DNA of 63,134 bases, taken from assembly GCA_043736395.1 (NCBI GenBank), contig JAYTCQ010000032.1, forward strand, positions 1 through 63,134, written 5' to 3'. This document shows positions 48,889-53,454 of this stretch, piece by piece. Position 1 is the stretch's first letter, and every line of letters starts with the position of its first letter. A model generated the notes under the pieces. It was not told the origin of the DNA. It was given only the letters and a program-made list of their open reading frames with translations, and did no database searches. This DNA is from Blastocatellia bacterium (lineage in GTDB: Bacteria > Acidobacteriota > Blastocatellia > RBC074). Made by a program: the position numbers and the translations under genes.

Positions 48889-49686
48889 TCAGCCGGGGCG
48901 ATGTAAATTTTTTAGTATGAGATGTGCGGTTACTTGAGCTTCACCACGAGAAGATTTGAGAATAGTTGCTCCTGTCACGGCTTGTTGTAAGGTAGGGATT
49001 ACGACTTCAGGTTTTCGTCTGGCTGAGACGGTATTATTCAATAATTCCAGGACGCCTTGTCCACCGGAAATTTTTTTCGGACGCCAACGAACATTGGCTT
49101 GATATGTACTGACAATTACCAGGGCAACATGCAAAGGTTTTGTGCCTGTGATGCCGCCGATTTTTTCGGCAGAATATTTTTTTTGCGCGAACCCACCAGG
49201 TTTTCTGACGGCTAACGGCTGTGGATACGGATGTACGCGGCCTTGCCAATCCAAAACGGCATATTCATCGGAATAATACGTTGCGCCCGCGCGTACCAGT
49301 GCCGCGACCAAACTGGTTTTGCCGCTGTAACTGCGACCGGGGATGACAATGGCTTTGCCCTGCCATTCGACTACGCCCGCGTGCACGAACACACGTCGTC
49401 GAGCCATTTCTGCGACGTACATCTTGATGCGGCGTTCCAAATCTTCCAGCACGATTTTCAAGCTGCGTGATTTTGCACCGCGTTCTTTGCCTTCAAAAAT
49501 TTCGTGGCTCTTGCCAATTTTCAGTGAAAATAATCGTTCGACTCGCGCCGCGTTGGAGGGCTTCCATAACGGCGGAAAATATTCATCAAGCGCGGACAGA
49601 ATTTCCGGCTGATTGGTGCGAATGCCGATCCGCACACCGTAAGATAAGATGGTGCGTTGGGCGATCCATTCGGTTGCGTTGTTCAT
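48889..49686 (-). CDS. HPr-kinase-like P-loop kinase
   Basis: VFVHAGVV..QGKAIVIPGRSYSGKTSLV (HA + Walker A) and YYSDE; N-terminal HPrK DRTGG domain absent. Confidence 0.85.
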   Translation of the reverse strand: MNNATEWIAQRTILSYGVRIGIRTNQPEILSALDEYFPPLWKPSNAARVERLFSLKIGKSHEIFEGKERGAKSRSLKIVLEDLERRIKMYVAEMARRRVFVHAGVVEWQGKAIVIPGRSYSGKTSLVAALVRAGATYYSDEYAVLDWQGRVHPYPQPLAVRKPGGFAQKKYSAEKIGGITGTKPLHVALVIVSTYQANVRWRPKKISGGQGVLELLNNTVSARRKPEVVIPTLQQAVTGATILKSSRGEAQVTAHLILKNLHRPG

Positions 49687-49787
49687 AAATGCTTAGCATG
49701 GAGTACAAGCTTCAGCTTGGTTGTAAAGTGGCGAGAAGTAAAACCAAGCTGATGGTCTTTGAAAATTAATTCCGGCAACCCGTACTG

Positions 49788-49824
49788 CGGGCGGCTCGCC
49801 CGCAGCACACGGGCGAGCCGCCCG
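49788..49824. repeat. GC-rich REP-like palindrome
   Basis: CGGGCGGCTCGCCCG ... CGGGCGAGCCGCCCG. Confidence 0.75.
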
Positions 49825-49889
49825 TGATACGATTTTTTTAGTTGCCGATTTTAATTTTCAAAGACTATAAGCTTGTACTTCATGCTTAC

Positions 49890-51604: not shown

Positions 51605-51611
51605 AAAATCT

Positions 51612-52646
51612 TTATTTCATAATCACATTTTCTTTACGCATCAGCTTCGGCGTTTGCCCCGCGAAGCCAATCACACGTTGCCCGCATTCCCACAATTGCA
51701 ACGGCCAGCGCGGCCAATTATTCATCGGCGCTTTGACGCGTACCGTAGCCTCTATTTTATTCGGCCAACGTTCGCGTAATGCATGCCATAGCCTCAACGG
51801 ATTGCGCAACTGCCCCGCCATCGGCGCGCGTCGTCCGTGCGTGACTTTGCCTGTGCCCCATTCGCGCAAGACTTCGGGAACAATCCAGCGCGGTAATTTT
51901 TTGGCGCGCACTTCAATGGGCAAACCGTCTACATTCGCGCCCAAGATTTGATGCGCTAAGCCAATCGCACACGCTGCCCAATCAGAACGCTGTTGGTTGC
52001 CACTTAAAAAATAATCCCACGAGAAGGGAGTGCGGATTTTGGATTGCGGATTGCGGATTGCCTGAAGTGCAACGGCAATGTCGCAGAGCCACAAAGGCCG
52101 TAGCGCTCCTTCGCGCAGCAAATGCAAACAGAGCAAGCGTAACAGGTCTTCGAAGCCAAAGATGCGCACATCCACGCCATTGCACGGCACAAGCTCGGAA
52201 TGCGCGTAAAGATCATCAAAGCTTCGATCATCAAGCTCTGCCGCACCGCAATGCAAATCTACGTTCCAGCCCTGCGCTTCCGGCTGGTTCAGCGCGTCAA
52301 CAAATTGTTGGTATTGTTCCGACCTGACATAGAGATCAATGTCGCCATAAGGCCGCAGCCCAAGTTCAGGATAATGCCGCGCAATCGCCCAGCCTTTACC
52401 CAGGATCGGTTCAAAACCTTGCGCACGCAGATACATGAAAAGTTGGCTGATTTCTAATTCTTTAACGGCGGCTTGTAAGGTGTGAAGGCGATAGGCTTGA
52501 TGAAGTTGTTCCGCTTCGGGGGTATCGCGAAAATCAGAATTGCGAATGTGCCACCAAGACAACGCACCTGCACCTAAATTTAATAGCCGAAACGCGATTT
52601 TTGCCAGATTGTCAACAGATAGTTCACCAATAGTGCAAGCCAGCAT
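51612..52646 (-). CDS. Uncharacterised nucleotidyltransferase (NTP_transf_5-like)
   Basis: PILGKGWAIARHYPELGLRPYGDIDLYV (hG/xDxD), VDLH, LRLLCLH, WLCDIA. Confidence 0.88.
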   Translation of the reverse strand: MLACTIGELSVDNLAKIAFRLLNLGAGALSWWHIRNSDFRDTPEAEQLHQAYRLHTLQAAVKELEISQLFMYLRAQGFEPILGKGWAIARHYPELGLRPYGDIDLYVRSEQYQQFVDALNQPEAQGWNVDLHCGAAELDDRSFDDLYAHSELVPCNGVDVRIFGFEDLLRLLCLHLLREGALRPLWLCDIAVALQAIRNPQSKIRTPFSWDYFLSGNQQRSDWAACAIGLAHQILGANVDGLPIEVRAKKLPRWIVPEVLREWGTGKVTHGRRAPMAGQLRNPLRLWHALRERWPNKIEATVRVKAPMNNWPRWPLQLWECGQRVIGFAGQTPKLMRKENVIMK

Positions 52647-52926
52647 CCCAGCAATGAGTTCACCATTATTTTTCGGTAAGTAGTCAGGCAGAAAGAAAGA
52701 AAAATTTAGACAAATTTTCTGTTATAGCGCGATGCCACAAGCCGCAGCATTTCAATGCAAAAAATGAAATAGACAAGGGTTTTGTATGGTGTAGCAACGA
52801 GTGATACCAACAAAATCATATCTAACTATCCTCACGCAAAGAACTTTGGCGGCGGATTTAGTAGTATAATAGCTATGGGTCGTATATCTAGACAATACAA
52901 TTACTAAAAGCTAAGCGCTGATATTT

Positions 52927-53454
52927 TTATACACAATTGAATATTGTTAGTGTAATTTGCGTACACCTTCTTGTAATATCCAAGCAACATCTGCCAACTG
53001 TTGCGAGGACGCATGCACCACCATTATTGCCAAGTGCGGGAAGTTGGCACCCGCTTGCTGCCGCCGCCGCCGCTGGTGCAACTACAGACATAACCACTGG
53101 CACAGCCAACGCAAATCCCATCCCAAGTCGTTTGAAAGTTTCTCGGCGTGACAGGCGTGGGCTTCCAACTGGCGGCGTCACACGCACTTCCAATAAATTC
53201 GCTTTTCCTAATCGTTCAAGTGCTAGCCAAACTGCTGCTTCATCTACGGCGGTATTGGCTTCCAATGCGACCAACTCGGCAATGTCCGTGACTGAATTTT
53301 TGCCATCGCAATATTTCCAGACCAGTGCGGCGGATTGATTCAGGCAGTGCGCGGCGTGGGTTTTTAGATCGTAGACCAACACTTCGTCGGGCATTTCGCG
53401 GGTGACCAAATCCTGATTTCTAGCTTTAGGAAAAGTTTGTTCATTGTTTGTCAT
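52927..53454 (-). CDS. PqqD/RRE domain fused to twin-arginine-like signal and Cys-rich core (candidate RiPP precursor fusion)
   Basis: AGGAG RBS then ATG 53454; EVLVYDLKTHAAHCLNQSAALVWKYCDGKNSVTDI...VWLALERLGKANLL (PqqD-like); LSRRETFK-LGMGFALAVPVVMSVVAP-AAAAAAS; core GCQLPALGNNGGACVLATVGRCCLDITRRCTQITLTIFNCV. Confidence 0.85.
   Translation of the reverse strand: MTNNEQTFPKARNQDLVTREMPDEVLVYDLKTHAAHCLNQSAALVWKYCDGKNSVTDIAELVALEANTAVDEAAVWLALERLGKANLLEVRVTPPVGSPRLSRRETFKRLGMGFALAVPVVMSVVAPAAAAAASGCQLPALGNNGGACVLATVGRCCLDITRRCTQITLTIFNCV

Follow-up and report, generated by a model that had tools for sequence, protein, structure and literature searches.

What is made by a gene that joins a peptide-recognition domain, an internal export signal and a cysteine-rich tail in one polypeptide, and what do a kinase and a nucleotidyltransferase do beside it? 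The question is raised by four consecutive minus-strand genes, here called A, B, C and D in the direction of transcription, at positions 48889-53454 of a 63,134-nt stretch (the window) on Blastocatellia bacterium contig JAYTCQ010000032.1. An earlier note on this DNA had proposed this run of genes and their domain calls, and coordinates as well as Pfam, NCBIfam and structure matches agree with the proposal. With a probability of roughly 0.55, the cassette is a system resembling those for ribosomally produced peptides with post-translational modifications (RiPPs), derived from phosphorylated lasso peptide machinery whose lasso enzymes were lost. Its RiPP recognition element (RRE) would have become fused in cis to an exported, disulfide-folded precursor, the product of gene A. 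The associated chemistry, namely modification by D and B, cleavage after an AxA site, the knot topology and the export route, we infer. The genes and the parts of gene A are as follows.

48889-49686, minus strand: gene D, a P-loop kinase homologue with the HPr-kinase/PEPCK fold (265 amino acids (aa); AlphaFold, Foldseek and invariant motifs)
49890-51419, minus strand: gene C, a MauE membrane domain of about five transmembrane (TM) segments and two thioredoxin-fold domains (509 aa; Pfam MauE, E=4e-30; AhpC-TSA/Redoxin twice)
51612-52646, minus strand: gene B, an NTP_transf_5 nucleotidyltransferase (344 aa; Pfam, E=3.6e-21)
52927-53454, minus strand: gene A (175 aa; Pfam PqqD at residues 24-73, E=2.4e-6, 28.2 bits against a cutoff of 23.4)
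53152-53454, minus strand: gene A residues 1-101, predicted cytoplasmic PqqD/RRE domain (Pfam, AlphaFold, Foldseek)
53056-53151, minus strand: gene A residues 102-133, predicted internal signal resembling those for twin-arginine translocation (Tat), with SRRETFKRLG, a hydrophobic region and an AAA site
52927-53055, minus strand: gene A residues 134-175 and stop codon, hypervariable Cys-rich core with six Cys (C-x12-C-x8-CC-x7-C-x10-C)

Gene A belongs to a large family. At least 968 relatives were found at E<=1e-3 in a collection of 5.8 billion proteins, and a search of 1.84 billion cluster representatives (50% identity) with the A profile returned 2115 matches at E<=1e-30 and 5815 at E<=1e-10. 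A genome-collection scan confirmed at least 563 loci, nearly all in metagenome-assembled genomes (MAGs) of Acidobacteriota (Blastocatellia, Pyrinomonadaceae, Chloracidobacterium and others). Where public records name the A protein, it is a "PqqD family protein"; D is recorded as a "hypothetical protein". The A protein of the window is identical in four independent assemblies. Tail and signal statistics given below refer to 201 relatives, neighbourhoods to 79 related loci taken with up to 10 kb of flank, and synteny counts to the 60 loci with at least 2.5 kb on either side of an A copy. The locus closest to the window, L001, comes from a Blastocatellia MAG.

Nearly every family member has the same three-part build of RRE, signal and Cys-rich tail. 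The N-terminal segment of about 100 residues is strongly conserved (ARxxxLV...DEVLVYDL...AHCLNQ[ST]AA..W..CDG), and the ATG start of A matches the N-termini of its homologues, which give no support to a longer TTG start at 53571. In the AlphaFold model, residues 10-100 form three strands and three helices, with a predicted local distance difference test score (pLDDT) above 90. The best Foldseek matches are the leader-bound lasso B1 proteins TbiB1 (5v1u/5v1v) and 6jx3, with TM-scores of 0.70-0.73; PqqD (5sxy) and then RRE domains from other RiPP enzymes follow. The A-family profile scores 34 bits on the lasso RRE BsfB1, and its matches among sequences of solved structures are marginal ones to PqqD only. 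The kinship to phosphorylated lasso systems that the earlier note had drawn for both the RRE and the kinase is thus borne out by TbiB1, by BsfB1 and, for the kinase, by the BsfK motif alignment described below.

Behind this domain lies the signal segment, whose twin arginine is invariant (201 of 201 relatives). Its consensus reads P-A-G-x-P-[RG]-L-S-R-R-E-[AV]-[IMV]-[RK]-[RK]-[LI]-G and is followed by a hydrophobic run about 20 residues long, which has Pro at +16 and +24 and ends in A-A-x-A-A-[ST] and then Cys. The distance from the twin arginine to the first Cys is 27-45 residues (mode 32-33), a span that fits a signal peptide with a helix-breaking Pro near -6 and AxA at -3/-1. A lipobox (LAGC) stands in place of the AxA site in 14 of the 201 relatives. 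Motif, hydrophobic region and AxA site of a Tat signal are all present; the N-terminal position is absent, the signal standing behind a 100-residue domain. Internal Tat signals are carried by actinobacterial Rieske proteins. Export by Tat in preference to the general secretory (Sec) pathway is our inference from sequence, favoured because the twin arginine is invariant and because of the logic of exporting a substrate modified in the cytoplasm.

The tails that follow measure 24-94 residues. Cys makes up 18% of them, Gly, Ser, Thr, Asn and Pro are frequent, and charged residues are nearly lacking. Cys counts range from 6 to 18 and are even in 198 of the 201 tails (binomial P 8e-55): 72 tails have 6, 47 have 8, 16 have 10, 55 have 12, six have 14 and two have 18. 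Such even counts fit complete disulfide pairing, not metal binding. The commonest framework, in 37 of the 201, is C-C-CC-C-C, the knottin pattern, which the window tail also shows; some 12-Cys tails are tandem copies of it. Most tails (8-18 Cys, CxxC-containing) use other frameworks. One core of the 6-Cys type reads SCLGSGSACTTSAQCCSGSCAGFFCT. Against Pfam, knottin-pattern tails give sub-threshold matches to the spider and cone-snail families Omega-toxin (Omega-atracotoxin), Conotoxin and Toxin_12/21/29. A knot with the disulfide connectivity I-IV, II-V, III-VI is our hypothesis for these cores. The RRE-fused, Cys-rich peptide with predicted export that the earlier note had sketched from one sequence thus defines a whole family, with its invariant twin arginine and even Cys counts.

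Leader and core evolve at very different rates. Where two leaders are at least 90% identical, the median identity of their tails is 53%, falling to 39% for leaders 80-90% identical, and tails can be wholly different between leaders that share 88% identity. The window itself provides an example. Its DNA is 82-85% identical to that of L001 in every gene from the exopolysaccharide (EPS) genes to a downstream S15 peptidase, but the alignment of A ends at 53046, at codon 136, the predicted cleavage site, and beyond it neither the core nor the 3' spacer aligns. In L001 and its companions among the nearest relatives, the core has 8 Cys and a C-terminal SW[RK]xP, whereas the window core is unrelated and has 6 Cys. 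A derivation of the window core from an 8-Cys core by frameshift or replacement was considered and rejected: tblastn of the relatives' tails against 52500-53150 gave no significant remnant. This combination of conserved leader and hypervariable core matches the pattern of conotoxin and of bacteriocin or RiPP precursors. The fast diversification suggests an interaction molecule, be it a toxin, an inhibitor or a matrix or recognition factor.

A further feature of the tails concerns a Trp near the C-terminus, often within S-W-[RKV]-x-[PN]. It is conserved in the 8-12-Cys, CxxC-containing subfamily closest to the window (tails P0002-P0010, P0022, P0041, P0051, P0058, P0088, L009, L013, L043, L065 and L068). 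The window core lacks this Trp.

Conservation of the neighbourhood ties A to its partners. Of the 60 fully flanked loci, 47 have D as well as B no more than 3 kb from A, the usual order being D-A-B, and 54 have one or both there. The same neighbours in dozens of related loci place this arrangement far from chance. The MauE-thioredoxin gene C occurs in 13 of the 60, always in the order B-C-D. The expectation that all four genes travel together held for D and B and failed for C: C is an accessory gene, and D and B are the core partners of A. Several loci carry two or three A paralogues. Among six orphan A copies, three come from MAGs with the full triad on another contig (L037/L003, L052/L053, L039/L057). 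Carriers of the triad include the complete MAGs OY969701.1, OY970389.1 and OY970352.1.

Gene D has no Pfam match, and neither has its homologue flagged PF27840; its best NCBIfam match, at E=7e-14, is 'HprK-related kinase A' (TIGR04352), for which it scores 51.6 bits where the cutoff is 200. The AlphaFold model (pLDDT 92) matches HPrK/P (1kkl) and phosphoenolpyruvate (PEP) carboxykinase in Foldseek. H102, the P-loop PGxSxSGKT (116-124) and SDE (139-141) are invariant in 29 homologues. The motif H102-G117-G122-K123-T124-D140-E141 aligns with identical spacing to H148-G163-G168-K169-S170-D186-D187 of BsfK; the position of BsfK G166 is not Gly in D. The D-family profile scores 24 bits on the BsfK catalytic core. 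BsfK is a lasso-precursor kinase that phosphorylates Ser3 of the core and is strongly accelerated by the RRE BsfB1 (PMC10368454). By analogy, D probably phosphorylates A.

Across 56 homologues of gene B, the signature GKG...R..GDxD never varies, and neither does a third Asp. B has no match in NCBIfam, and a sequence search with D and B against solved structures gave none at E<1. With the kinase motif and the GxG/DxD motifs of the nucleotidyltransferase invariant, both proteins look active. PsmN of the pseudomycoidin cluster is, we presume, a further member of NTP_transf_5. Annotated as a nucleotidyltransferase, PsmN adds a hexose to the phosphorylated Ser of pseudomycoidin (PMC8498205). Gene B may likewise extend the phosphate with a nucleotide or a sugar.

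The MauE domain of gene C scores 105 bits, and its thioredoxin part resembles MauD (78 bits against an equivalog cutoff of 188.6) and ResA, below the cutoffs. Invariant across homologues are a CxC in the MauE domain (C97/C99) and the CxxC pairs C254/C257 and C409/C412. Presence of the gene goes along with the type of core. Tails with only 6 Cys make up none of 17 in MauE loci and 42 of 65 elsewhere (Fisher P 5e-7, uncorrected for phylogeny), a difference that links C to the peptide. In related loci with the MauE gene (within the range L001-L068), cores have 8-12 Cys and a median of 64 aa; those elsewhere mostly have 6 Cys and a median of 31 aa.

Enzymes of lasso formation were sought in several ways. 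A Pfam scan of the window took in the open reading frames (ORFs) of at least 200 aa in the 63 kb and, in 32.8-63.1 kb, most of the shorter ones; it gave no match to a cyclase of the Asn_synthase type, a transglutaminase-like peptidase, YcaO or a lanthipeptide enzyme. A six-frame search of the window gave neither the SGGxDS cyclase motif nor a match to BsfB2, and phmmer with BsfB2 on all ORFs of the 79 loci and on the six-frame window gave nothing below E=0.5. No recurrent family in the 79 loci resembles a lasso cyclase or a B2 peptidase. The SGGxDS motif occurs in only six of them, in AsnB homologues that were examined as cyclases and rejected. They score 665 bits with TIGR03108 against 300 with the lasso cyclase model NF033535 (cutoff 525) and retain an intact glutaminase half; they are EPS amidotransferases. 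The spacers of the cassette offer neither room nor an ORF for a short separate lasso precursor (YxxPxL...T(-2), ring Asp/Glu at 7-9). Small ORFs in the spacers show nothing conserved, and the fused tail is left as the only candidate substrate. The absence of such enzymes stated by the earlier note stands for cyclase, peptidase, YcaO and lanthipeptide synthetase, and its proposed check of the contig for lasso B2 and cyclase genes found none in the window or in the 79 loci. It does not stand for radical SAM enzymes: one such gene lies at 19480-20121. Placed one ORF upstream of QueC, it is probably QueE of queuosine synthesis, unrelated to the cassette.

The earlier note had also missed the setting of the cassette, which occupies the 3' end of an EPS locus both in the window and in many relatives.

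53682-63134, minus strand: upstream EPS locus (Pfam)

Its genes encode a fusion of a GT4 initiating transferase with CoA_binding_3, several GT1s and methyltransferases, an epimerase, a deacetylase-like protein and a PMT-like GT-C membrane protein. In 28 of the 60 loci, a homologue of the GT4 gene is found no more than 6 kb from A, and Wza, Wzc, Wzy_C, GT1s, epimerases and XrtA/PEP-CTERM-type amidotransferases recur among the neighbours of relatives. A sigma-70-like site (TTTTCA-17-TATAAT, 10/12) at 53485-53513, 31-59 nt 5' of the ATG of A in the 228-nt gap between GT4 and A, is possibly a promoter of the precursor's own; overall, promoter-like and terminator-like sites are no more numerous than background.

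Other proteins recur beside A in the sampled loci. Peptidase_C25 proteins (about 1100 aa, Pfam E=4e-75) are found in 15 of the 79 loci, often directly adjoining A, orphan copies included (for example L053 at 5324-8701, L014, L020, L049, L052 and L070). We take C25 to be the family of the sortase-like PorU, a kinship that raises the possibility of peptide processing or attachment. A 437-aa protein without Pfam match (cluster 21) adjoins D or B in 10 loci (L003, L005, L006, L007, L017, L035, L051, L053, L059 and L067). Another Pfam-unmatched protein of 398 aa (cluster 39), with an N-terminal CxxCxxCC-like cluster, stands beside A in five (L004, L007, L008, L011 and L028). Homologues of the C25 peptidase, Wza, Wzc, Wzy_C and clusters 21 and 39 are absent from the window.

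How would such a cassette work? Gene A would encode a precursor whose leader is the whole RRE plus the twin-arginine signal and whose core is the Cys-rich peptide of 24-94 residues. By homology, the RRE in cis would dock D, which would phosphorylate a Ser or Thr of the precursor in the cytoplasm. It would also dock B, which would add a nucleotide or sugar to the phosphate in the same compartment. The twin-arginine signal, judging from its sequence, would then carry the core across the membrane while the N-terminal domain remains inside. Signal peptidase I would presumably cut after AxA, or signal peptidase II at the lipobox variants, and free the core. All cysteines would pair into disulfides, a step for which the parity of the counts is observed and the connectivity proposed. 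In the 8-12-Cys subclade and in the window, the oxidoreductase C could aid disulfide formation. The product would be a secreted or lipid-anchored, disulfide-knotted peptide made alongside exopolysaccharide. The precursor architecture draws support from an RRE closest to lasso B1, from the invariant twin arginine with its hydrophobic region, Pro and AxA, and from the lipobox variants. Tailoring of A by D and B is supported by the D-A-B synteny and by the BsfK/BsfB1 and PsmN precedents.

Several observations weigh against this reading. The tail region of the AlphaFold model has pLDDT below 55, so the knot stays hypothetical. No conserved acceptor residue was found: the C-terminal residue of the tail is unconserved (Ser in 9 of 201), and paeninodin-type phosphorylation of a C-terminal Ser does not carry over. 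Although 75% of tails have a Ser or Thr no more than two residues before the first Cys, the same would follow from a signal-peptidase site. It is unusual for a Tat signal to come after a folded domain of about 100 residues, and the segment could equally well be a Sec signal-anchor. The link between MauE loci and Cys-richer tails lacks a correction for phylogeny, and the window is itself an exception, with a 6-Cys core and a MauE-thioredoxin gene. Thioredoxin domains of MauD and ResA are usually pictured as periplasmic. The positive-inside count over residues 132-190 of C (loop 4 with K+R 1.5 and D+E 2.9; post-TM5 linker with K+R 4.5) assigns the linker that leads into the thioredoxin domains to the cytoplasmic side and would thereby put both domains in the cytoplasm, which bears on the side on which disulfides form. 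The constant placement with EPS genes means that D and B could act on sugars or lipids, not on peptide. The locus was found in sediment DNA metagenomes only and in no RNA run.

The EPS placement also feeds an explanation in which the peptide is exported and disulfide-folded, yet untailored. The RRE would then be an intramolecular chaperone or export proofreader for its own signal, and D and B would serve EPS synthesis, on a sugar or lipid carrier or in regulation. The position at the 3' end of Wzx/Wzy-type loci with GT4 nearby, the missing acceptor residue and the score of D far under the cutoff of every curated kinase family all speak for it. Nevertheless, D and B adjoin A also where no EPS genes flank them (L019, L022, L027 and L028), D aligns to the catalytic core of proven RRE-assisted peptide kinases, and no solved structure or family ties D or B to sugar chemistry. 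We regard it as unlikely, though it is the strongest of the explanations that deny a tailored precursor. Somewhat less probable still is that A is an uncleaved single-pass membrane sensor or regulator (ToxR/CadC-like or anti-sigma-like) that controls EPS together with the kinase. An N-in, C-out topology with one hydrophobic segment would suit such a protein, as would its place beside a kinase within a regulated EPS locus. The fold of the RRE is of the winged-helix kind, and A has a weak HTH_47 match (E=0.002). However, the N-terminal domain is acidic (median net charge -2), which makes DNA binding unlikely, and its model matches peptide-binding RREs, not DNA binders. The conserved AxA with Pro at -6 and the lipobox variants argue against an uncleaved protein, and sensors rarely diversify as these tails do at 88% leader identity. 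Paralogues in twos and threes and orphan copies fit a sensor poorly as well.

A split lasso pathway, in which D, B and the RRE tailor an ordinary phosphorylated lasso peptide whose cyclase, B2 peptidase and precursor lie elsewhere in the genome, is very improbable. All three families are typical of paeninodin-, pseudomycoidin- and Bsf-type clusters, and our view of this genome is limited to 63 kb. Against this, neither the window nor the flanks of up to 10 kb in the 79 loci contain a B2- or cyclase-like gene, and the AsnB homologues of six loci are XrtA/PEP-CTERM-type EPS amidotransferases. Moreover, practically all members have the RRE covalently joined to the signal and Cys-rich tail, an arrangement that would be pointless in a B1 protein serving a separate precursor. 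A bolder proposal than the modified, exported precursor is less likely than not, yet far more probable than the split pathway. It posits a new RiPP class, widespread in Acidobacteriota, whose precursor has its own RRE and internal Tat signal and whose core, phosphorylated and phospho-linked to a nucleotide or sugar in the cytoplasm, is then exported and folded into hypervariable, knottin-like disulfide peptides. In view of the EPS context and the C25 (PorU-family) peptidases beside extra A copies, the peptides may even be displayed covalently on the exopolysaccharide, or prime it.

Known systems share parts of the reading of A as a tailored, exported precursor. Phosphorylated lasso clusters (paeninodin Pade, pseudomycoidin Psm and Bradymonas Bsf) have in common with the cassette a B1-type RRE, an HPr-kinase-like kinase with the same motif and spacing, and a nucleotidyltransferase of the 'uncharacterised nucleotidyltransferase' type, all within one operon. 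Unlike them, the cassette has no cyclase, B2 peptidase or ABC exporter, and its RRE is fused in cis to the substrate. Where lasso precursors have a YxxPxL...T(-2) leader and a lariat core of 15-25 residues, A has a signal peptide and a core of 24-94 residues with 6-18 Cys, and the C-terminal Ser acceptor of lasso cores is not conserved. The small subunit of methylamine dehydrogenase, MauA, is exported by Tat and holds six disulfides. The mau system resembles the cassette in encoding MauE and a MauD-like thioredoxin fold beside a small, twin-arginine-signalled, disulfide-rich polypeptide; the cassette differs in that MauE is fused to two thioredoxin domains and that gene C is present in only about a fifth of cassettes. 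Pfam and NCBIfam scans found no mauA, mauB or mauG in the window. The HPr-rel-A system consists of HprK-related kinase A (TIGR04352) and a PqqD family protein (TIGR04353), and thus pairs a kinase of the same superfamily with a PqqD-family protein. D nonetheless reaches only 51.6 of the 200 bits of the TIGR04352 cutoff, and A has no TIGR04353 match at E<0.01. To our knowledge, the HPr-rel-A description includes neither a signal peptide nor a Cys-rich tail. The cassette belongs to none of the three, the lasso clusters, the mau cluster or the HPr-rel-A system. By analogy, its action may combine the tailoring portion of a phosphorylated lasso cluster with an export and disulfide step of MauA/MauE type.

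Precursors outside these systems offer further parallels. Animal and plant knottin and conotoxin precursors likewise have the C-C-CC-C-C framework, a conserved leader, a hypervariable mature region and tandem double-knot tails, but the cassette has a bacterial host, an RRE with an internal signal as leader, and dedicated kinase and nucleotidyltransferase genes. Precursors with NHLP or Nif11 leaders and borosins are RiPP precursors with large leader domains or enzyme-fused cores. In them, too, the core peptide comes C-terminally after a folded domain of about 100 residues in place of a short leader, whereas in A this domain is itself the recognition element and precedes an export signal; it is neither an enzyme nor a nitrile-hydratase-like leader. 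In the literature and curated families, no description of a fusion of RRE, signal peptide and Cys-rich core was found; full-text searches brought up only lasso reviews and a database note on the existence of bacterial knottin sequences.

Should the reading of A as a tailored precursor be correct, thousands of acidobacterial "PqqD family protein" genes would be precursors of secreted, disulfide-knotted and probably phospho-modified peptides. Acidobacteriota rank among the most abundant phyla of soil, and these peptides would form a large store of hypervariable scaffolds resembling knottins. Lasso-type tailoring enzymes and the RRE would prove reusable without lasso formation, and this would be the first case of a RiPP recognition element inside its substrate, joined with a membrane export signal. 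Such a design could serve for making and exporting modified disulfide-rich peptides in bacteria. The tie to EPS loci suggests a hitherto unknown peptide component in acidobacterial biofilm matrices.

Minor observations concern the EPS locus and the rest of the window. The PMT-like protein at 56589-57977 (minus strand) is a 462-aa multi-pass membrane protein with a weak, below-cutoff match to PMT (protein O-mannosyltransferase, GT-C; E=6e-4), conserved upstream of GT4 in seven related loci. A role as EPS polymerase is possible, or else one as a glycosyltransferase for exported substrates rich in Ser/Thr. The AsnB amidotransferases of XrtA/PEP-CTERM type in the EPS part of L009, L011, L013, L015, L051 and L068 score about 650-665 bits with TIGR03108 (cutoff 817) and hint at an exosortase-linked polysaccharide system.

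The B/C and C/D spacers of the window, each 190-200 nt long, are filled by hairpin repeats resembling repetitive extragenic palindromes (REP) or miniature inverted-repeat transposable elements (MITE), at 51431-51612 and 49745-49875; in relatives, C and D overlap by 4 nt. Further copies lie at 2946-3080 and 59021-59122, and in L001 the spacer between GT4 and A shows matches, in both orientations, to parts of the C/D element. Other inverted-repeat families occupy 6181-6310, 17743-17820, 18708-18782 and 41450-41577, and one family has 43-nt arms composed of CACGAAG heptads. In an Rfam scan of the window, the sole match was a tRNA at 28134-28218. On the minus strand at 29385-32741, a 1118-aa protein of STAND-type architecture has an alpha/beta-hydrolase part at its N-terminus, an FGE-sulfatase domain at its C-terminus and, in addition, a NACHT NTPase. 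At 13507-17600, adjoining DUF4394 (832 aa) and DUF4331 (500 aa) genes lie downstream of those for an FG-GAP/ASPIC protein and a SurA-like chaperone.

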